Positions 3,514 through 53,204 of a stretch of DNA of 64,000 nucleotides are shown piece by piece. Position numbers and translations under genes: made by a program. Positions within the stretch are counted from its first letter, which is position 1, and every line of letters begins with the position of its first letter. The notes beneath the pieces are model-generated. The model saw only the letters and a list, made by a program, of their open reading frames with translations. It had not been told where the DNA came from and ran no database searches. This DNA comes from Dehalococcoidia bacterium (GTDB taxonomy: Bacteria; Chloroflexota; Dehalococcoidia; Lucifugimonadales; UBA2985), in NCBI GenBank assembly GCA_965218945.1, contig OZ244718.1, positions 1,981,700-2,045,699 on the forward strand, in the 5' to 3' direction.

Positions 3514-4821
3514 TCACATACTTTTCGTCTGGTCAACGCCAACAACCCCCGGCAAAACGGGTTTCCTGGAAAATAGCACAAGGAAGCCGCCAAACAAGTT
3601 TACCGCCGCAAGGGTCAGCAGCGGCACGGTGTAGCTCCCCTGAAGATCGAAGAGATAGCCCGCAAACAGGGGCGCTATGACCGACACGCCGCTCAGGAAG
3701 AATGCGGAGAGGCCGAAGATGGTGGCGAAAGCCTTTCGCCCGAAGTAGTCTCCCCTGAGAGCGGTGAAGAGAGCGCCCCGCCCACCCCATCCAAATCCGA
3801 ACAGCACCGCAAAGGGCAGCGCCGTCGCAAAGCTGTTAATACCCACTGCAGCCACGACACCGATGGCCTGAATGGTGGCAAAGCCGAATATTATCACCGG
3901 CTTCGGGAACCGGTCCCCCAGGTAGCCTCCAACTATACGAGACCCCATGCCAACAAAGGTGTAAACGACCACCACGGTGCCGGCAAGCCCCAGGGACAGC
4001 CCGGCGTCGTGGAGCATGGGGATGGAGTGCACCTGGAGCGCGCCAACTATCATAGCGCTTAGGCCGTGGCTGAAGGTGATCAGCCAGAAGGCGGAGGTGT
4101 GCATCGCCTGGCGGGCAGTAAAATCACCATCTCCGTATGCGGCGACTCGGCCCTCCGACCCGTCCGCTCGAGACCTCGAGTCAGGGGCATCGCCGTCCGG
4201 CATCTGACCGTATTCCTCCGGCCGATTTCGTATCAGACGCGTGAGGGGAAAGGCCAGGATCAGGAAAATCACACCGAGACCGAATGCTATCGTTCGCCAT
4301 CCCAAAAGGCCGATTCCCACTGCCAGGACCGGCACCAGGATCCCCCCCATATAGTTGCCCATGCCGGCCGAGGCGATGGCTATGCTCCGCCGCCGCACAA
4401 ACCAGTTGTTCACCGCGGCTATCATCGGCAGGAAGCCTCCCAGTCCCATGCCAACGGCGATCACCATGAACGCCAGGTAGAAGCTGACAATGCCGCTGGT
4501 GAAGCTGAACATGAGGAATCCCAAACCCAGGATGGTAAACCCCACAAGCACCATCCTCCGGGAGCCAAACCGGTCAGTAAAGTATCCCTCCACGGGACCC
4601 ATCACGGTCCCCTCCAGGCGCGCCAGGGCAAATGCGCCGGACAGGACCGTCCTGCTCCACCCGAAGTGGCGCTCCAGCGCCACAAAGAAAACACCGAGCC
4701 CGTGGGCAGCCGCGCCGTTCGACAGGGCTATGGTGAACATGGCTACGCCAACAAGCCACCATCCGTAGAACAACCCGCGAGGCTTGTCCGCGGGTCCGGC
4801 AGCAGTGGGTGACCGTTCCAT
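3514..4821 (-). CDS. MFS transporter
   Basis: The ORF track gives 3514..4977. The hydrophobic core starts after MERSPTAAG (Met53, nt 4821). About 12 predicted TM segments; the upstream 52 codons are Cys/Arg-rich and look non-coding. Confidence 0.8.
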   Translation of the reverse strand: MERSPTAAGPADKPRGLFYGWWLVGVAMFTIALSNGAAAHGLGVFFVALERHFGWSRTVLSGAFALARLEGTVMGPVEGYFTDRFGSRRMVLVGFTILGLGFLMFSFTSGIVSFYLAFMVIAVGMGLGGFLPMIAAVNNWFVRRRSIAIASAGMGNYMGGILVPVLAVGIGLLGWRTIAFGLGVIFLILAFPLTRLIRNRPEEYGQMPDGDAPDSRSRADGSEGRVAAYGDGDFTARQAMHTSAFWLITFSHGLSAMIVGALQVHSIPMLHDAGLSLGLAGTVVVVYTFVGMGSRIVGGYLGDRFPKPVIIFGFATIQAIGVVAAVGINSFATALPFAVLFGFGWGGRGALFTALRGDYFGRKAFATIFGLSAFFLSGVSVIAPLFAGYLFDLQGSYTVPLLTLAAVNLFGGFLVLFSRKPVLPGVVGVDQTKSM

Positions 4822-5037
4822 AGGTGTCGCCTTCCTTAAATCCCGAGGGAGTGCCCACCAACGCGGGCCATACGCATTATGACACACAAAGGCATCGTTC
4901 CCAACAGGAATGCAGCGAAGGAATCTCGAAGATGAGGAGCGGTTTCGAGCAACATGGCCGCAAGCGCAAGGAAGCACATGAAAGCGCAGATAAGAGCTGG
5001 AAAGAGCTAGTCGTTCAAATTGCCGCTGTCGACCCGC

Positions 5038-6627
5038 TCAAATGGTTCGAGAGCCCTCTTTCTCAATTGACACGAAATCCTGAGTCGGGATGCCCAGGGT
5101 GATAGTGACGCTATTGTCACCATCTATGGTGATCTGGTCCACGATTAGCCTCAGGATGTCCCGACGCTCCTCGGAGGGCAGGTTATCCAATCGACCGCCA
5201 ATCCTGCGGGACCACTCGGCAATGTTCCCCGTCAGTACCTTCCTCTCCGTGGCCGCTGCCCCTTGAGCACGGTAGTCATAGAGCCTTGCCCGTGCGGCTT
5301 CCAGACGTTCCTGTATACGCTTGCGTTGATTGTCAAGCTGGTCCTCGGATATCTTGCCGGATACATACAGGCCAATTGCCCTGTCCTCTTCCGTCTGTAC
5401 CTTACGGAGCTCCCGCTCCGCATGGGCAATCCGCCTCTCAAGCCCACCATCCTCCCGCTCCTCCACGGACTCCATGCCCTTCACGATCAGGTCGGGATTC
5501 TGAACCACCGTTCTGACCTCTCTCCAGACCAGCTCCTCCAACCTGTCGGCTCGGATGTATGGCCGTTGCCGGCACCGCATGTGCTCCCTCTGCATTCCGT
5601 AGCAGTGGTAGTAGCGGTTAGGAGTCTTCAGGTCGTAGGTGTACCTCCTGTCCTTGTACTTCGCGGTTGCTCTGGTCTTGGACCGGCAGCCGAAGAGCAG
5701 ACCGCACTCGGAGCACCTTACGAGGTGCTGCAACAGGAAGAAGACCTTGGTGTTCCGCTTGGACAGGGAGGCCCGCTGCTTCTTGATGGCCTGCGCCCGA
5801 TCCCACGTCTGCTCGTCCACGAGGGGCGGGAAGGGTACCCCTATCCACGTGTCCTCCGGCTGCCTAGTGACCCGGTCCCTGCCCTCCGTGGCCACCCAGC
5901 GGGCCTTTCCGTACCACCAGATGCCTTTGTAGACCTCCTTGCCGAGGAGAGAATGCACGTAGGAGTTCTGCCACCGCGAGCCGAGCCTCCAGGTAGGGGC
6001 ATTGTCTCGGGCCAGCTGACTGGCAATCTCCAGCCCCACCATCCCTTCGTGTACGTACTGGCGGAAGATGCGCCTCACGATCTCGGCTTCCGGCTCGTAT
6101 ACCACCGGCTTGCCGTCCTCCCCGATCCGGTATCCATAGGGGACCGAGCCATTCGGCATGCGTCCCTGCTTGGCCTTCCCGCGCCTGCCCATGGTTGTTC
6201 TCTCCCGGATGTTGTCCAGTTCTATCTTCCCGATGGCCGCCATGATCCCGAACATCTTCATGTCGACGGGGTCCATGACCGACTCTAGGCGAATCTGGTG
6301 CGCCTCGACGACCTCCATCATGGCGGCTGCCGGGTACATCCCGCGGCTCAGCCTGTCCATCTTCCAGCACACGATGACGTCGAACCGGCCGTCCCGCGCA
6401 TCGGCCAGCATGCGCTGGAACTCCGGGCGGTTCTTGGACCAGCCCCTGCCCACCTCCTGGTAGCGCGCGGTGATGGTCAGTCCCCTCCGCTCGCAGTAGG
6501 CCTCCATCTCGGCGGTCTGCTCGGAGATGGAGACCTTATCCTCCGTGTCCTGGCTCTTGTCCGACACGCGGGAGTATATGGCCGCCCGTTTCGTTCCCGT
6601 CTCCCTATCGGTGGTTCTCATCGCCAT
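5038..6627 (-). CDS. Large serine recombinase (resolvase/invertase N-domain + recombinase domain + zinc ribbon + coiled coil)
   Basis: 529 aa. N-terminal AAIYSRVSDKSQ catalytic-Ser motif, DVIVCWKMDRLSR, Cys cluster CSECG...YYHCYG, C-terminal coiled coil. GGAGG RBS upstream of the ATG. Confidence 0.9.
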   Translation of the reverse strand: MAMRTTDRETGTKRAAIYSRVSDKSQDTEDKVSISEQTAEMEAYCERRGLTITARYQEVGRGWSKNRPEFQRMLADARDGRFDVIVCWKMDRLSRGMYPAAAMMEVVEAHQIRLESVMDPVDMKMFGIMAAIGKIELDNIRERTTMGRRGKAKQGRMPNGSVPYGYRIGEDGKPVVYEPEAEIVRRIFRQYVHEGMVGLEIASQLARDNAPTWRLGSRWQNSYVHSLLGKEVYKGIWWYGKARWVATEGRDRVTRQPEDTWIGVPFPPLVDEQTWDRAQAIKKQRASLSKRNTKVFFLLQHLVRCSECGLLFGCRSKTRATAKYKDRRYTYDLKTPNRYYHCYGMQREHMRCRQRPYIRADRLEELVWREVRTVVQNPDLIVKGMESVEEREDGGLERRIAHAERELRKVQTEEDRAIGLYVSGKISEDQLDNQRKRIQERLEAARARLYDYRAQGAAATERKVLTGNIAEWSRRIGGRLDNLPSEERRDILRLIVDQITIDGDNSVTITLGIPTQDFVSIEKEGSRTI

Positions 6628-6874: not shown

Positions 6875-7447
6875 TCAGCCTATCTCATGAGTTCGTGTTC
6901 GAGAGCAGTAGGTTATCGGCAGCTCGAACAACCGCGCCAATTTTTTGACGGTTGGCAGGATGTCGTCACGCTTCATACGCCTCGTGTCGGTGTCGAACAT
7001 CAGGTAGTAAAACGAGGCCCAAAAGATCGCGGCTTGATCGAAATCAACATCCTTGCTAGGACCTATCGTTGATAGGCATCCCGAGCCAGTCATCACGGCT
7101 TGTCGAAATTGGTCGTTCACCACACTACAAGCCGAGATGAACAGCCGTTTATCTTGTAAGTATGGCCTAAGAAGGTCGCCTAGCTCTTGGAACGAGATCG
7201 TGTCGAATGTGGTTCCGATGGCTCGACTATTCCCGTGGCAGGATAAATGCAAGTAACGATATCCGCTTTCTTGAAAGTCCTCCAAGAAGTGTATTAGTTC
7301 CCGCTTCGTTCGAATGTAAACGTATCGCGGGGACTTACCAGACAGCTTGAGAATCTCCGTAAGCGCCTCTCCCTCTCGTTCACCCTTGGCCTCGTTTTCC
7401 AAGTCAACCGACTCAATTATGTAGATATCCGGTGTGTCAAGGGCCAT
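6875..7447 (-). CDS. Standalone mini-CHAT / caspase-like protein (paralog 1)
   Basis: 190 aa. His-Cys dyad context YRYLHLSCHG ...36 aa... LFISACS, then GCLSTIGP..V.D..AAIFWASFYY, which matches CHAT-domain topology. AGGAGG RBS. Visibly AT-richer than neighbours. A paralog lies at 51505..52161. Confidence 0.6.
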   Translation of the reverse strand: MALDTPDIYIIESVDLENEAKGEREGEALTEILKLSGKSPRYVYIRTKRELIHFLEDFQESGYRYLHLSCHGNSRAIGTTFDTISFQELGDLLRPYLQDKRLFISACSVVNDQFRQAVMTGSGCLSTIGPSKDVDFDQAAIFWASFYYLMFDTDTRRMKRDDILPTVKKLARLFELPITYCSRTRTHEIG

Positions 7448-7665: not shown

Positions 7666-8904
7666 TCAATCCTCCGGTTCGTCACCTGACGACGCGGCGG
7701 TCGTCGTCGGAGCCCCCGCCGCTGATGAACCGTACGTCTCCATCGCCTGCCTCGTCCGGTCGAGCTCTGACGCCAGGAGCGCCTCGTCCGGCAGGGTGAT
7801 CCGGTACTCCCCGGCCATCACGTTGTTCGGCAGGCCATCGAGGGCATACTGCGCCAGGGCCTCGTCCTTCTCGGAGCAGAGGATGAGTCCGACAGGCGGG
7901 TTCTCGCCCTCGCGCACCCAGTGCTCCCGCGCGTAGTTCAGGTAGAGGTGCATCTGCCCGGCGTCGGCGTGGGTGAACGCCCCGATCTTCAGGTCGATGA
8001 CCACGAGGCATCGCAAGCCCCGGTGATAGAACAGCAGGTCAACCCTGTACCACCTGTTGCCGATGCGCAGACGCCTCTGCCTGCCCATGAAGCAGAAGTC
8101 GCCTCCGAGCTCCATGAGAAAGGTCTCCAGGTGGCGAATGAGCGCGTCTTCGAGGTCGCTCTCGGAGTACTCGTCCCTGAGGTCGAGGAACTCCAGGACG
8201 AAGGGGTCCTTGATCTCCTTCTCGGGCAGCACAATGTCTTCGGCCCTGGGCTTCTGCCCCCGCGCCAGCATGGCGGCCTTGTTCTTGGACAGGGCGGTGC
8301 GCTCGTAGAACTGTGAGCCGATCTGCCGGTCGAGCTGGCGGACCGACCATCCGCCCCGCAGCGCCTCGGTCTCGTAGAACTCGCGGGCGCTCTCGTTCCT
8401 CACCGATAGCAGCCGGACGTAGGCCGACCAGGGCAACGGAAAGGCCGCCGGAAGGTCGTGGAAGCCCACTTCGACGGAGGAAGCTTCGGATATGCCAGAC
8501 GCCGTCTGGCGAATCGGCATTTGAGAGGGTCGATTCAATTTGCCAGACACTGTCTGGCGAATCCGGTCGGGCGGATGCGAAAGGTAGAACAGTCGCATGT
8601 TCTGGAGGTTCTGACGGGAGAAGCCCCGTCCGAATTGCCCGGTCAGGTCCTCCGCCAGGCTCTCGATCAACGCGGCTCCGTACTCGGCCCGCTCCTCACC
8701 CGACTGCTCGAACTCGACGATGCGCCGCCCAACGAGCCAGTACGCGGCGGTCATGGCGGCGTTCACCGAGCGGGCGGCCGTCTCCCTGGCCGCGTCGATG
8801 ATCTTCGACACGTCTCCGAAGACGGCCCGATATGGGGCGTCGTGGCTGAGAGCCGAATCCCTCGGCGCAGGCTTCTGACGGTCGGGGGACGACTCGGACC
8901 GCAT
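7666..8904 (-). CDS. YhcG/DUF1016-family PD-(D/E)XK nuclease
   Basis: 412 aa; the C-terminal RVDLLFYHRGLRCLVVIDLKIGAFTHADAGQMHLYLNY block is typical of DUF1016 nucleases. Confidence 0.8.
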   Translation of the reverse strand: MRSESSPDRQKPAPRDSALSHDAPYRAVFGDVSKIIDAARETAARSVNAAMTAAYWLVGRRIVEFEQSGEERAEYGAALIESLAEDLTGQFGRGFSRQNLQNMRLFYLSHPPDRIRQTVSGKLNRPSQMPIRQTASGISEASSVEVGFHDLPAAFPLPWSAYVRLLSVRNESAREFYETEALRGGWSVRQLDRQIGSQFYERTALSKNKAAMLARGQKPRAEDIVLPEKEIKDPFVLEFLDLRDEYSESDLEDALIRHLETFLMELGGDFCFMGRQRRLRIGNRWYRVDLLFYHRGLRCLVVIDLKIGAFTHADAGQMHLYLNYAREHWVREGENPPVGLILCSEKDEALAQYALDGLPNNVMAGEYRITLPDEALLASELDRTRQAMETYGSSAAGAPTTTAASSGDEPED

Positions 8905-16206: not shown

Positions 16207-17045
16207 GTGCCAGACGATAGGTTCAATGAGTACTGCGAGGCTTTACTCGCACAGTACACTCGAAGGAACACGCAGACCGTCACTCAGCGCTTGGAAAGCC
16301 TGTGCGAGTTCCTCAGGCAGAAGGGCAATGTCGTGCAGACCATGTTCGGCGGTTCCGTCAAGAAGGGCACGTATGTGACCGGCCTCAGTGACGTCGATGT
16401 TCTTCTGATAGTAAGCGAGTCCTCTCTAGTGAGCCAATCCCCCTCGGATGTCATAGAGTTCGTACGGGACACCATTCAGCGACGGCTTCCTCAGAATCGG
16501 GTAACTGCGGGCAAACTGGCTGTGACAGTCAGCTACGCCAATGGGACCGAGATTCAGCTACTGCCCTCCATACGACAAGGACTGGCGGCGTTCGGATTGC
16601 CGAGCCCGGAAGCACCCAGTGGAGCAACGTGGCGCATCCCGAGAAATTCGCTGAGAAGCTCGCCGAGGTCAACATGGCGAGGGATGGCAGAGTCGTACCG
16701 GTAGTCAAGTTAGCCAAGGCAATGGCGGACTGTTTCATCAGCCGTCCAAGCAGGAAGATTAGCGGCTATCACATGGAGTCCCTGGCAATCGACGCATTCA
16801 GCAACTACCGGGGCCCGCTTGACCCGAAGGCTATGCTCGTTCACTTCCTGGGGCACTCCATAGAGGCGGTAAAGCAGCCCATCACCGATTCAACAGGACA
16901 GTCGAGATATGTAGACGAATACCTATGCACAGCTGATTCCCCACTCCGAAGGCGCGCCTCAACCTACTTTGGACAGATGCGGAGCAGGGTCAACCGTAGT
17001 AGGACCAGGGCCGAGTTCAACGCACTGTTCTGCATAGGGGACTAG
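16207..17045 (+). pseudogene. CD-NTase/SMODS-like nucleotidyltransferase, disrupted by a frameshift
   Basis: N-terminal helix then GGSVKKGTYVTGLSDVDVLLIV (GS...DxD NTase core). The reading frame switches near 16579-16582: ORF 16207..16704, then ORF 16629..17045 in the -1 frame. Restoring one nt gives ...LLPSIRQGTGGVRIAEPGSTQWSNVAHPEKFAEKL... Confidence 0.7.
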
Positions 17046-17060
17046 GGAGACGAGCGCGGC

Positions 17061-49853: not shown

Positions 49854-49939
49854 GGTTGGAGACCTCCATATCCAAATCCAAGTGTAGTGTATAATAGGCC
49901 AATCTCATCTTCAACCATCACACCACAGGAAGGCGCAAG

Positions 49940-51472
49940 TTGATAATCAAAAACCTCCTTATAATTGCAGCAACCACCCTGGCGCTCTTTGCAGCGCTGG
50001 CCTGCAGCGCAGATCCCACACCTGTACCTCCCATACCACCAACGGCCACCAGCACAAACCCTCCTCCGACGGCCCCAAGCGCTCCGGTATCCCGCTCGGA
50101 TGTTGAGACGACATTCAGTGAGCCTCTCTCCTCCGGCCTCTCCATAGCCGACGTGACGGAGAACGCCCTGCCCAGTGTGGCTCACATAGTCACGGGGACC
50201 GGCTCAGGGACCGGGTTCATAGTCAACGAGAGCGGGCTTGTGGTCACCAACAAGCACGTCGTGGATGGGAGCACGGAAGTCAGGGTTATTATGGCGTCTG
50301 GAAACGACTACCGGGGCAGCGTGACACAGCGGCATCCCACCCTGGACCTAGCCTATATCAGCATAGACTCCAGCCAGACCTTCACCCCAATAGCGGTCGG
50401 AGACTCCGATGAGGTCCGCGTTGGAGCGGAGGTCATAGCCATAGGGTTTCCACTGGGGTCGACGCTGGGGTCAGAGCCGACGGTCAGCGTGGGCATAATC
50501 TCGGCAAAGCGGGACGCCCGCCTGCAGACCGACGCGTCACTTAATCCCGGGAACAGCGGCGGGCCGCTGCTGAACATATTCGGGCAGGTGATTGGCGTGG
50601 TGGTCTCACGGGTGGAAGAGGACAGCTCGGGGAGACCCATCTCAGGAATTGGGTTTGCGATACCCATCAACGAAGTGAAGACGGAGCTTGGAGGGCAGGT
50701 ATCCCCAGCCGGGCCGGTTCTGCCGACGCCAACGCCATTCCCAACCATTGGGCCGACCCCAGACTTGGAGGCCACCAAGAGCGCGATAGAGGCTATAGAC
50801 GCCTTCCGGCGGGCTTCAGACCAGGCCACGCAGGCGGCCGTTGAGGCCCGGGCCACAGCCGAGCAGTACGCCGCCGACCTGGAGGCCACCCGCATAGCCG
50901 ATCTGCCCACCCCAACACCTACGGCCACTCCCACCGCCACGCCCCTTCCCACGGCCACCCCGACGGCTACCCCGACTCCTACGCCGGAACCGACACCGAC
51001 GCCCACTGCTACACCTACCCCACATCCGGCAACTTTCTGCACGGAATGGGAGGCCTTGGTGCTGGAGTGGGTCAAGCAGGGGAACAACTATCGTCGCTAC
51101 GGCACTGTCATTGGGTTTCATCCCGATGTACCCGACCACCCCCGGATATCCGCCGAGCAAGGGGACCGTCTCTGCCTCACTTCATTTCCGAGAGGTATCT
51201 CTCCTTCATTCCTCAGCTACAATGTCATCAAGATTGGCTATGGAGAAGGGAATCTCCTGCCTGGCCTGTACGAGTACCGTCGGCCGGGCGATAATCGCGT
51301 AGACGGCAAAGGTTGTAGCATCACGCTCAACTATGAGGAAAGAAACGAAAGTGAGGTTCCACTGCCCTACGGCGAACTGTTCACCTTCCGGTTCTTTACA
51401 TATCACGAAAGGGTTAAGTTTAATTGGTCCTCACCCAATTGCCATGGTGCCCTCTACCGCATAGGGGACTAG
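49940..51472 (+). CDS. Trypsin-like (S1/HtrA-type) serine protease lipoprotein with PT linker and unknown C-terminal domain
   Basis: Lipobox FAALAC; catalytic triad context TNKHVV / LDLAYI / GNSGGPL; no PDZ; PTPTPTATPTATP... linker; C-terminal domain of about 130 aa unknown. Confidence 0.85.
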   Translation: MIIKNLLIIAATTLALFAALACSADPTPVPPIPPTATSTNPPPTAPSAPVSRSDVETTFSEPLSSGLSIADVTENALPSVAHIVTGTGSGTGFIVNESGLVVTNKHVVDGSTEVRVIMASGNDYRGSVTQRHPTLDLAYISIDSSQTFTPIAVGDSDEVRVGAEVIAIGFPLGSTLGSEPTVSVGIISAKRDARLQTDASLNPGNSGGPLLNIFGQVIGVVVSRVEEDSSGRPISGIGFAIPINEVKTELGGQVSPAGPVLPTPTPFPTIGPTPDLEATKSAIEAIDAFRRASDQATQAAVEARATAEQYAADLEATRIADLPTPTPTATPTATPLPTATPTATPTPTPEPTPTPTATPTPHPATFCTEWEALVLEWVKQGNNYRRYGTVIGFHPDVPDHPRISAEQGDRLCLTSFPRGISPSFLSYNVIKIGYGEGNLLPGLYEYRRPGDNRVDGKGCSITLNYEERNESEVPLPYGELFTFRFFTYHERVKFNWSSPNCHGALYRIGD

Positions 51473-51488
51473 GGGTGGCTGGGGGGCG
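51452..51488 (+). repeat. 37-bp direct repeat, copy A (overlaps the protease stop codon)
   Basis: CTCTACCGCATAGGGGACTAGGGGTGGCTGGGGGGCG; 33/37 identical to copy B at 52229..52265. Confidence 0.8.
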
Positions 51489-51504
51489 AGTTGGAAGGAG
51501 AAAA

Positions 51505-52161
51505 ATGGCAATTCAGACTGATGTATTCATGATAGAATCAATGCTCCTCGATGATGAGTTAGAAAATGACATTGAGGGCAAGTTGCTGACCGAAATGTTG
51601 CGATTAGGCGGCAAGAACCCTCTTTATTTCTATGTGAGAACGAAACGGGAACTGAAAGAGATACTACGGCTGTTTGAGAAGAGTGAGTATCGCTATCTAC
51701 ATTTGTCGTGTCACGGTGATCCCAGAGCAATAGATACAACGTTAGACAGCATCACGTTTGAGGAATTGGGTGGGATCCTCAAACCCTACCTTTGCAGGAA
51801 GCGTCTGTTCATGTCATCGTGCGCAACGGTCAACGGCCGACTTGCAAGAGCGGTGATGAAAGGCTCAGGGTGTCTGTCCGTTAGCGGGCCGATTAAGGAT
51901 GTTGATGTCGATGTAGCAGCGATATTCTGGGCTTCTTTCTACCATCTGCTATTCCGCAAAGATGAGAAGCCTACAAGGGACCAAGACATCAGAGACATTC
52001 TTGGACGTGTGACAAAGCTATTCGGAGTATCGACTCGCTATTACGGGATTGATTCTAGTACAAGCAAAGGCTATCGCTTTAAGACCTTCCGTGTATGCGA
52101 AAACGAGAACATGGATGATTCTATGACTTCGCAGTCATCCACGGAGAAGGGATCATCATAG
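51505..52161 (+). CDS. Standalone mini-CHAT / caspase-like protein (paralog 2)
   Basis: Start at MAIQTDVF after GGAAGGAG. Aligns along the whole length with 6875..7447 (roughly half of residues identical by eye), including YRYLHLSCHG, RLFMSSCAT and AAIFWASFYH. It has an extra Ser/Thr-rich tail. Confidence 0.6.
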   Translation: MAIQTDVFMIESMLLDDELENDIEGKLLTEMLRLGGKNPLYFYVRTKRELKEILRLFEKSEYRYLHLSCHGDPRAIDTTLDSITFEELGGILKPYLCRKRLFMSSCATVNGRLARAVMKGSGCLSVSGPIKDVDVDVAAIFWASFYHLLFRKDEKPTRDQDIRDILGRVTKLFGVSTRYYGIDSSTSKGYRFKTFRVCENENMDDSMTSQSSTEKGSS

Positions 52162-52228
52162 GTTGGAGTTGGGGGGGATACTCTGTTGCAAGGATTGTGT
52201 AGCAAGGGAAGAGAGGGAGTATGGGCGT

Positions 52229-52265
52229 CTCTACCGCGTAGGGGTCTAGGGGTGGTTGGGTGGCG
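52229..52265 (+). repeat. 37-bp direct repeat, copy B
   Basis: CTCTACCGCGTAGGGGTCTAGGGGTGGTTGGGTGGCG, 68 nt after the mini-CHAT stop and 36 nt upstream of the next ORF start. Confidence 0.8.
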
Positions 52266-52301
52266 TCAACGTAGTCTGTGAGAGATGAAAGGAGGCCAAG
52301 T

Positions 52302-52532
52302 GTGGCTAAAGTCAGCCCTGAAGTCTCAGAAATAGTAGAGAAGGCCTTTGAGAGATACGTCCAAGAAGTCGAGGAGTCTAATCTATCAGAAGAAAGCAAG
52401 AAAACGTACATAGAGCACTCTAGCACTTTCGTCCGGTGGCTGAACGACGATTTCGAGCCGGGAGCGCAGGTGCGACGAGTTCCCCCCATAGTCCCACCAA
52501 GGCCTCCCATAGATCCACGATATCCGAGATGA
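52302..52532 (+). CDS. Hypothetical 76-aa protein
   Basis: GTG at 52302 follows AGGAGG with 6 nt spacing (the ORF track starts at 52278). Helical N-part (SEESKKTYIEHSSTFVRWL), Pro-rich tail; no family recognised. Confidence 0.4.
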   Translation: MAKVSPEVSEIVEKAFERYVQEVEESNLSEESKKTYIEHSSTFVRWLNDDFEPGAQVRRVPPIVPPRPPIDPRYPR

Positions 52533-52613
52533 AAGGCCCCATCCGTCAATGTAGCCCCGGCTCTTGGGGGCTCACCGCCAAGCTAAGGCGGGACAGCCAA
52601 CTCGCCCTGGGCG

Positions 52614-53039
52614 CTACTTCAGCAGCCCCCGCACGGGGATGAGTTTCTGGCCGTAGGGATCGACGCCGAGGAGGACGCCTTCGAGCGTGTACGCGCCCAG
52701 CAAGGCGGTTGTCCCTTCCTCGCCGAATATGACCCAGGTGGTGGTCTCTCGTCCCGCCACCCTGGCCTTCGCCTCGGCCATGTCCAGTTCAACCTGCTGT
52801 CCACTGGCGTATTCGAATGTCTCGCGCCTGGTGGGGACGATGCCGAGGCTTCCGAGGATGGAGCCTGGGATCACGGTGGTGGTTGCGCCGGTGTCAACCA
52901 GAGCCTCCAGGTTCTCGTATCTCTCTCCCCGCAGGTCTCCAATCTCTATCTGTACGGCAAAGGTTCCCACTTCAACCTTCTCTATCAAGAGAGTCACGTT
53001 GGAGCACAGTCCCCTCACTGGAGACCTTTGCGTAACCAT
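52614..53039 (-). CDS. Retropepsin-like (clan AA) aspartic protease
   Basis: 141 aa; ALVDTGATTTVI active-site motif and a C-terminal LLG...L dimerisation-like strand. Confidence 0.75.
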   Translation of the reverse strand: MVTQRSPVRGLCSNVTLLIEKVEVGTFAVQIEIGDLRGERYENLEALVDTGATTTVIPGSILGSLGIVPTRRETFEYASGQQVELDMAEAKARVAGRETTTWVIFGEEGTTALLGAYTLEGVLLGVDPYGQKLIPVRGLLK

Positions 53040-53059
53040 AGGCTGAGCTCCGTATTTCC

Positions 53060-53083
53060 GTCATTCCTGCGGAAGCAGGAATC
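53060..53083 (+). repeat. GTCATTCC hairpin repeat, copy 3
   Basis: GTCATTCCTGCGGAAGCAGGAATC: perfect 8-bp stem ATTCCTGC/GCAGGAAT with a GGAA loop. Confidence 0.7.
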
Positions 53084-53129
53084 TGGAGCGTCTCATCCAA
53101 TGCAACGTAGCTTTGCAGACAGCGCTTTA

Positions 53130-53153
53130 GATTCCCGTTTTCACGGGAATGAC
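53130..53153 (-). repeat. GTCATTCC hairpin repeat, copy 4 (inverted)
   Basis: GATTCCCGTTTTCACGGGAATGAC: perfect 7-bp stem; opposite orientation to copy 3. Confidence 0.7.
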
Positions 53154-53204
53154 GCTTGGAATGCCTCTTCATGGGCTGACGCAAGTGGTTATTCAAAGGT
53201 CTAC

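Follow-up and report, generated by a model that had tools for sequence, protein, structure and literature searches.

The DNA examined here (the window) is a stretch of 64,000 nucleotides from a Dehalococcoidia bacterium (assembly GCA_965218945.1, contig OZ244718.1). In it, a gene for a secreted S1 protease is followed on the same strand by a gene for a small caspase-like protein (mini-CHAT) and by a small open reading frame (ORF), and a gene for a retropepsin-like protease converges on them from the right (Table 1). The initial annotation, made from the letters alone, had noticed that the mini-CHAT gene lies between two 37-bp direct repeats, and had proposed either a single-gene cassette, inserted with target duplication or by site-specific recombination, or an operator or promoter element shared by two genes. 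Comparison with related loci (designated by L and a number) indicates that the repeat is the conserved end of the protease gene, and suggests that its second copy is a relic of such an end, probably displaced downstream by an incoming module that carried the mini-CHAT gene.

Table 1. Features of the locus, and cargo found behind the motif in the window and in related loci
Feature	Positions	Strand	Remarks
S1 (trypsin/HtrA-like) protease gene, lipoprotein-type	49940..51472	+	Pfam Trypsin_2, E=3e-30; NCBIfam
Repeat copy 1	51452..51488	+	Functional S1 protease gene end (LYRIGD, TAG) and G-rich tail; equals the clade consensus
Conserved core ATAGGGGACTAGGGGTGGCTGGGG	51461..51484	+	First 15 nt invariant in ten close-clade gene ends or relics
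Leader and ribosome-binding site of mini-CHAT, AGTTGGAAGGAGAAAA	51489..51504	+	Homologous to leaders in L010, L018 and L013b (alignment)
Mini-CHAT gene	51505..52161	+	218 aa, caspase/CHAT fold (predicted); G+C 0.41-0.53
Spacer	52162..52228	+	67 nt; relic frame reads ..EYGR before LYRVGV*
Repeat copy 2	52229..52265	+	Apparent relic gene end (LYRVGV, TAG, G-rich tail); four private substitutions
Leader 2, TCAACGTAGTCTGTGAGAGATGAAAGGAGG..	52266..52301	+	Homologous to the DNA right after the single motif copy in L008 and L001
Small ORF, 76 aa	52302..52532	+	Tiny family of 58-76-aa proteins
Right border of the variable slot	52601..53039	-	3' end of a retropepsin-like (clan AA) protease gene, 52614-53039
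Cargo in the window, L010 and L018			Mini-CHAT
Cargo in L001 and L008			Cys-rich miniprotein
Cargo in L002 and L003			'LQAEC…NPAGG' protein
Cargo in L007			Nmad2 and helix-turn-helix (HTH) protein
Cargo in L009			HTH protein and others

The repeat pair in the window

A repeat search recovered the two copies as they had been described, 37 nt long, identical at 33 positions (89%) and with starts 777 apart; they differ by A/G, A/T, C/T and G/T. Written as a degenerate 37-mer, the sequence occurs at these two sites only in the 64-kb window and not once in 100 dinucleotide-preserving shuffles. Its relation to the neighbouring genes was also confirmed. Copy 1 consists of the last six codons of the protease gene (CTC TAC CGC ATA GGG GAC, encoding LYRIGD), the stop codon TAG at 51470-51472 and a further 16 nt (GGGGTGGCTGGGGGGCG). 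The ATG of the mini-CHAT gene (51505) lies 16 nt past copy 1, and the GTG at 52302 lies 36 nt past copy 2. Neither the repeat search nor the fold analysis detected an inverted-repeat partner of the 37-mer or dyad symmetry.

Read in the protease frame, copy 2 gives LYRVGV-TAG with no gene upstream, and therefore looks like a dead gene end. Two of its four substitutions (ATA>GTA and GAC>GTC) break codons that are invariant in the relatives, and its nhmmer score is about 22 bits, against about 44 for the intact motif. Copy 2 thus appears to be a relic in the course of decay.

The end of the protease gene

The protease belongs to a family of 848 homologues at E<1e-20, in which conservation extends over the N-terminal two thirds and the PT linkers, and the last ~130 residues (about 51090-51450) are hypervariable. 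As seen in the C-termini of 36 homologues, this C-domain is framed by FCxEWEALVLEWIKQGN on one side and CxGxLYRIGD on the other. The same discontinuity is found at the nucleotide level. Homology of L001 and L002 to the window protease (84-86%) stops at 51086-51090; for L002, identity is 83.5% up to 51090, nothing aligns until 51452-51486, and there it is 94%. In an alignment of eight sequences, comprising the last 480 nt of the protease gene and 80 nt downstream, identity peaks at 0.82-0.96 between 51447 and 51487, above the rest of the C-domain, and the gene end of ~35 nt is the best-conserved stretch of the 560 nt compared. The invariance of the first 15 nt of the core (ATAGGGGACTAGGGG) includes a rare ATA codon and bases past the stop, unlike the neighbouring Leu and Arg codons, which vary synonymously.

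At six related loci the motif coincides with the last codons and tail of a homologous protease gene, in one copy per locus. Distant family members (49-62% amino-acid identity) end in ..ATT/ATC GGG GAC TGA and have no G-rich tail, and the nucleotide motif is absent from two of them (L015 and L016); it is therefore a feature of the close clade and not of the protein family. On this comparison, the 37-mer is the conserved end (LYRIGD, TAG and a G-rich tail) of a gene for a secreted S1 protease in Dehalococcoidia.

Further features of the gene and its end deserve mention. The C-domain contains Cys, many copies of the family adjoin transposases, and several genomes appear to carry at least two paralogues of the protease; taken with the hypervariability of the C-domain, these traits suggest that alleles of a surface-exposed domain may be shuffled. 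At L009 (7534-7557) three tandem units, TAGGGGAC TAGGGGGC TAGGGGGG, make up the tail of the motif, and in other relatives it is built of imperfect GGGGTGGC units, so that the G-rich tail seems to behave like a short, unstable tandem repeat. We also found a perfect 16-nt inverted repeat at 51046-51061 and 52495-52510 (ATGGGAGGCCTTGGTG / CACCAAGGCCTCCCAT). Its first arm codes for the conserved ..EWEALV.. edge of the C-domain and its second falls at the 3' end of the small ORF, with ~100 nt between it and the right limit of the variable segment, the pair enclosing the stretch of low G+C. The inverted repeat may have been left by a protease fragment that was inverted, or may be due to chance (roughly 0.02-0.05 expected at this spacing). 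A shufflon-like inversion between its arms was rejected, as the inverted reading gives a tail of ~30 residues and no alternative C-domain.

Occurrence of the motif in other genomes

We scanned one genome per species for TAGGGGNCTAGGGGTGGNTGGG, and extended the scans to metagenome and viral contigs. Three Dehalococcoidia metagenome-assembled genomes, one of them a complete 2.79-Mb chromosome, gave one exact match each, and all three matches fall at the end (..LYRIGD-TAG) and tail of a gene, or the remnant of a gene, for a homologous protease. Among metagenome contigs there were three matches, unrelated and chance-like, and among viral contigs there were none. With a single copy per related genome, and with the viral scan empty and the metagenome matches chance-like, the motif is not a dispersed repeat, and the initial annotation's concern that it could be a common intergenic motif throughout the genome is not supported. 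Repeats of the repetitive extragenic palindromic (REP) type or miniature inverted-repeat transposable element (MITE) type, which require many copies per genome, were rejected on the same single exact match in each of the three relatives.

The window contains a third, partial repeat, an exact 16-mer (GCATAGGGGACTAGGG) at 17032-17047 (+) that ends another gene. It comprises the last codons (..FCIGD), the TAG and two bases of a frameshifted nucleotidyltransferase gene (16207-17045) that sits in a defence-like island. The chance expectation of such an identity is ~1e-3 per window. An insertion of the motif into other genes was considered for this site and rejected: the nucleotidyltransferase family natively ends in ..LFCIG[RNT], and the DNA downstream is collinear with a homologue.

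Origin of the second copy

The relatives that have no mini-CHAT gene at this place (L001, L002, L003, L007, L008 and L009) carry a single copy of the motif, and the situation that the initial annotation had named as contrary to an insertion, both copies being present regardless of the mini-CHAT gene, was not encountered. The empty site that it had proposed to look for was found in L008. Positions 422-1959 of this locus align to 49929-51487 of the window, and positions 1923-1990 align to 52228-52295 at 83.8% (blastn); since the two alignments overlap at the motif, the one copy in L008 corresponds to both copies in the window. Accordingly, the DNA past copy 2 (CAACGTAGTCTGTGAGAGATGAAAGGAGG) is the native leader behind the motif in L008 and L001. 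On these alignments L008, and in part L001, represents the empty site.

The architecture recurs in loci that do carry mini-CHAT. In L018, an independent assembly with the right flank of the window, a protease gene with another allele of the C-domain is followed by the motif and, 32 nt on, by a mini-CHAT gene (63% amino-acid identity); a decayed second motif (CCTCCGGCATAGGTGAATAGGGATGTGCCTG) comes after ~100 nt. The local alignment score of this second motif is 32, against 16.6±3.1 in shuffles, of which 1 in 1000 reaches 32. In L010, protease, motif, leader and mini-CHAT gene stand in an unrelated genomic context and are collinear with the window at 71% over 2.1 kb. L013 is syntenic with the window (flanks 96% and 93%); its protease body is gone, and what is found is a well-kept motif relic with downstream sequence of the L007 type and, ~170 nt further, a decayed stub (GCATAGGAGATTAGGAG) with a leader of the L010 type, then mini-CHAT. 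The mini-CHAT gene of L013 is nearer to that of L010 (78% at the nucleotide level) than to that of the window (72%). These comparisons indicate that the mini-CHAT module is older and more mobile than one insertion would make it, and L010, L013b and L018 point to a mobile unit composed of protease gene end, leader and mini-CHAT gene. The proposal of a single inserted gene therefore holds only in part: the second copy does go with an inserted mini-CHAT module, but mini-CHAT alone is not the unit.

The variable slot and its cargo

L007 is the closest relative of the window, with an upstream flank 98% identical at the nucleotide level and the same allele of the protease C-domain. Its homology to the window breaks off within the motif, at 51481, and is found again from 52610 onwards, at the 3' end of the retropepsin-like gene, which means that 51482-52609, including copy 2 and the small ORF, is wholly replaced between the two. 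L007, L013 and L018 all become homologous to the window again at about 52601-52610, and between these same flanks L013 and L018 carry mini-CHAT alleles 69-72% identical to that of the window. As listed in Table 1, other loci carry other genes behind the motif. On these alignments, the locus is a small cargo hotspot between the conserved, convergent protease and retropepsin-like genes, with the motif as its left edge. The G+C content is 0.41-0.53 over the cargo and about 0.60-0.65 in the flanks, which points to a foreign origin of the cargo.

No homologue was found for the spacer between mini-CHAT and copy 2. The family of the small ORF comprises five clusters in 5.8 billion proteins; a homologue lies in L009 at 8163-8357 (-), so that both orientations occur across the cargo regions of two loci. 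The ORF has weak, sub-threshold matches (E~0.002-0.006) to the SAM-like N-termini of XerC/XerA tyrosine recombinases. We rejected it as an integrase remnant, the matches being sub-threshold and the family consisting of proteins of this small size. Beyond the right border, two dRS3-like palindromes (ATTCCTGCGGAAGCAGGAAT and ATTCCCGTTTTCACGGGAAT) lie at 53059-53154, between the retropepsin-like gene and a CoA-transferase gene, and a 46-nt stretch at 53204-53249 matches L009 just past its protease stop, at 87% and on the opposite strand.

The mini-CHAT gene

The match of the mini-CHAT protein to Pfam CHAT is sub-threshold (E=0.0096). Its AlphaFold model has a pLDDT of 90, and the best Foldseek matches of the model are SAVED-CHAT (8tl0, E=2e-6), the TPR-CHAT protein Csx29 and caspases; H66, H70 and C106 are invariant in 35 homologues. 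The name mini-CHAT thus holds for a predicted caspase-like fold with conserved His and Cys.

A first paralogue, 53% identical to this second one at the amino-acid level, is encoded at 6875-7447 (-). It lies directly upstream of a gene for a 529-aa large serine recombinase (5038-6627), on the - strand, and the two edge an island (about 5-20 kb) that contains a DUF1016/YhcG nuclease, an IS1 remnant, McrBC, a nucleotidyltransferase and a NACHT protein. We found no repeats comparable to the 37-mer on either side. The idea that the motif forms part of every mini-CHAT module was rejected on the first copy in the window and on those in L017 and L019, none of which has the motif.

In L017, a related metagenome contig, the mini-CHAT gene (in the region 4677-5785) lies behind tRNA-Leu(taa), within a direct repeat of ~230 nt (~90%) that starts in the T-loop of the tRNA; this repeat extends from the T-loop to codon 19 (..DIGD) of the next ORF. 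In the same locus, at 4201-4574, a small GIY-YIG gene stands between 33-nt direct repeats that resemble 5' halves of tRNA-Leu. Single-gene inserts within duplicated target sequence may therefore be a recurring pattern in this lineage.

A proposed homology-driven displacement

We consider it moderately likely that a module recombined at the conserved gene end and displaced the resident end downstream, driven by homology. An incoming module composed of gene end, leader and mini-CHAT gene would have recombined with the end of the resident protease gene. Most economically, one crossover in the ~37-45 nt that the two have in common would suffice, the donor being circular or looped; alternatively, a replacement anchored by homology would have involved one illegitimate join. 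The outcome would be an intact protease gene with copy 1, the mini-CHAT gene, and the displaced resident end (copy 2) on its old leader. A single crossover with circular intermediates has been proposed for the displacement of Rhs tips (PMC2935791), and applied here, with a circular donor, it would produce exactly the layout observed. Paralogues of the protease, of which there seem to be at least two in several genomes, would supply the ectopic homology. Copy 1 would stay under selection because it is coding and carries the conserved motif, and copy 2 would decay as a relic. The order of these events, the circular intermediate and homology, not a dedicated enzyme, as the driver are what we infer from the layout.

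Several points weigh against this displacement. A crossover confined to ~37-45 bp has little more than the minimum length that RecA-dependent recombination needs. In the three relics with non-protease DNA upstream (copy 2 of the window, L013a and L013b), similarity starts within a few nucleotides of the 5' edge of the motif, and this apparent clustering of breakpoints hints at a more specific process. The G-rich tail past the stop is conserved beyond coding need, for which displacement gives no reason. Past the mini-CHAT gene of L010 there is no second copy of the motif; no circular form, donor or recombination intermediate was observed; and the sample of relatives, about ten loci, is small.

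Alternative explanations

Site-specific recombination, as proposed in the initial annotation, would make the end of the protease gene an attachment site, with the motif as its sequence, and the unit a 777-bp mini-cassette without a recombinase, which an integrase acting in trans either inserted or left in place. We regard this as unlikely, although much of the layout would suit it. A pair of direct repeats that reproduces the 3' end of a gene, and of which the proximal member leaves the gene complete, is the classic signature of attL and attR. The common 5' edge of the three relics, the conservation of the core beyond coding need, and the different cargo that begins directly past the motif in different genomes all point the same way, as does L017, where the repeat around mini-CHAT starts in the T-loop of tRNA-Leu(taa), a typical integrase target. 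The large serine recombinase described above adjoins the other mini-CHAT copy, and ssrA islands of Dehalococcoides combine a large serine recombinase, 20-bp repeats and tandem islands lacking a recombinase (PMC3146451). However, no recombinase gene lies in or beside the unit or the motif at the ~10 loci inspected (the window, L001-L003, L007-L010, L013, L017 and L018), and the sole large serine recombinase of the window is 45 kb away. The motif has no dyad symmetry or inverted-repeat structure. Repeat lengths vary widely, from 37 nt here to about 230 nt in L017, which a fixed core would account for less well than homology; copy 2 and its counterpart in L018 decay and are thus not maintained as sites; and the two copies in L013 are not in an attL/attR arrangement. 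In sum, two features of integration at a gene 3' end, direct repeats of that end with an intact gene and a single-copy empty site, are found and fit the proposal, but a cognate recombinase linked to the unit is not.

A bolder form of the same idea, which we hold to be quite unlikely, sees in the motif (ATAGGGGACTAGGGGTGGCTGGGG, ~24-37 nt) the site at which cassettes attach to an integron-like platform, so far undescribed, of uncultured Dehalococcoidia. Modules of one promoterless gene each (mini-CHAT, Nmad2, miniproteins) may in that case be captured serially behind the protease gene and expressed from it, by means of a recombinase that may belong to an unrecognised type or have its gene elsewhere. 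The relic breakpoints at the 5' edge and the conserved non-coding tail may then be footprints of this enzyme.

A cis-regulatory element (operator, promoter, leader or RNA element) shared by two genes would explain why both copies precede, by 16-36 nt, a start codon with a good ribosome-binding site, and why the core is conserved together with its non-coding G-rich tail; some variants of the motif could, moreover, form G-quadruplexes. This we judge very unlikely. The motif tracks the end of the protease gene whatever lies downstream, one per locus in the relatives; the first mini-CHAT copy and those of L017 and L019 do without it; and copy 2 is mutated at positions that are invariant in all relatives. 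No sigma-70-like promoter or terminator was detected at either copy in the window, no Rfam match at the repeat, and no conserved pairing, the fold z-scores of the two window copies being -0.25 to -0.74. In five of six contexts the z-score is ~0, and L007 alone reaches -2.0. The G-quadruplex was also rejected as a conserved feature: L008, L009 and L010 have a canonical form, which is missing from the window copies, L001 and L013a. The shared operator or promoter of the initial annotation thus finds no support.

Its other proposal, insertion with duplication of the target, fared no better. A transposase or casposase-like enzyme cutting 37 nt apart could leave such a pair, and both copies do carry the G-rich tail of the resident type, so that the pair formally resembles a duplicated target. 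But 37 nt is far longer than known transposase duplications, the insert ends without terminal inverted repeats, there is no transposase within 15 kb and no cas1 gene nearby, and mini-CHAT keeps the motif on its 5' side even where nothing is duplicated (L010, L013b). No family of identical inserts with differing 37-nt duplications was found, and we rate this explanation as highly improbable. Chance similarity or an assembly artefact, a general risk of metagenome assemblies, has next to no probability, given that none of 100 shuffles gave a match, that the independent assembly L018 repeats the architecture and that the motif is present in about ten independent contigs.

We also considered, and rejected, a number of more specific candidates. 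An integron attC site is contradicted by the lack of an imperfect inverted repeat, by fold z-scores of -0.25 and -0.74 and by the absence of GTTRRRY from either copy, and no IntI-type integrase was found among the neighbours in Pfam and NCBIfam scans. A diversity-generating retroelement is not compatible with the window, which contains no second DNA copy of the C-domain beyond the 37-mer, nor are the differences adenine-specific; no reverse transcriptase appeared in the Pfam scans or among the listed neighbours. Recoding that would fuse the protease to mini-CHAT was discarded because the frame relation between stop and ATG is not conserved, the distance being 35 nt with an in-frame TGA downstream in the window and 33 nt, and open, in L010.

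Relationship to known systems

The phenomenon belongs to known kinds: att-like repeats at gene 3' ends, displacement of the Rhs type, and hotspots between conserved flanks. SCCmec integrates at the 3' end of rlmH with direct repeats. As in SCCmec and the ssrA islands (PMC3146451), the repeats found here are the 3' end of the target gene and the gene stays intact, and in those systems tandem or accreted units and units without a recombinase also occur, the ssrA islands being from the same bacterial class. Those elements, however, are kilobases long and linked to a large serine recombinase (CcrAB, DsiB), whereas the unit described here has 777 bp, one gene, no linked recombinase and a distal repeat in decay.

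Displacement at the protease end resembles that of Rhs C-termini (Jackson et al. 2009, PMC2935791) in using a conserved stretch of a gene as crossover point and in keeping the old piece, silent, further downstream; in both, moreover, the C-terminal part of the gene varies and one crossover by way of a circular intermediate has been proposed. A displaced fragment that starts with conserved sequence is found as copy 2 of the window, in L018 and in L013a/b. Here, though, the shared stretch is ~37-45 nt at the very end of the gene, not a long, near-identical core, and the displaced piece is a stub with the cargo that used to follow it, not a toxin tip and its immunity gene. One and the same C-domain allele accompanies mini-CHAT in the window and stands without it in L007, which argues against a pairing of toxin and immunity protein.

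Minimal mobile elements of Neisseria are different small gene sets that lie between conserved flanking genes and whose exchange can be explained by homologous recombination. In a manner similar to these elements (for the term, see PMC3787668 and PMC3082526), the same slot with the same flanks holds different cargo in the window, L007, L013 and L018, and homologous recombination in the flanks could explain this. Unlike them, the left flank is a very short, unusually conserved motif at a gene end, and relic copies lie inside the slot. With integron cassettes the locus shares promoterless single-gene units in series behind a fixed platform, each after a short site, but not IntI, an attC palindrome or GTTRRRY; there are at most two units in series, and the distal site decays. 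The very short and unusually conserved anchor, the single promoterless cargo gene and the absence of a linked recombinase would make this a new, small-scale variant of the known kinds.

If a dedicated recombinase were found, the locus would represent a new cassette-capture system; if there is none, it would be a clean, small-scale case of homology-anchored displacement outside Rhs and polymorphic-toxin loci. The motif could also serve as an anchor for polymerase chain reaction or for searches, in order to catalogue accessory cargo in Dehalococcoidia genomes. For the biology of this poorly studied, uncultured lineage, our results suggest that a very short conserved gene end can anchor a hotspot of gene exchange, and that a stand-alone, caspase-like mini-CHAT gene may move as a very small unit, accompanied by a remnant of the gene that used to precede it.

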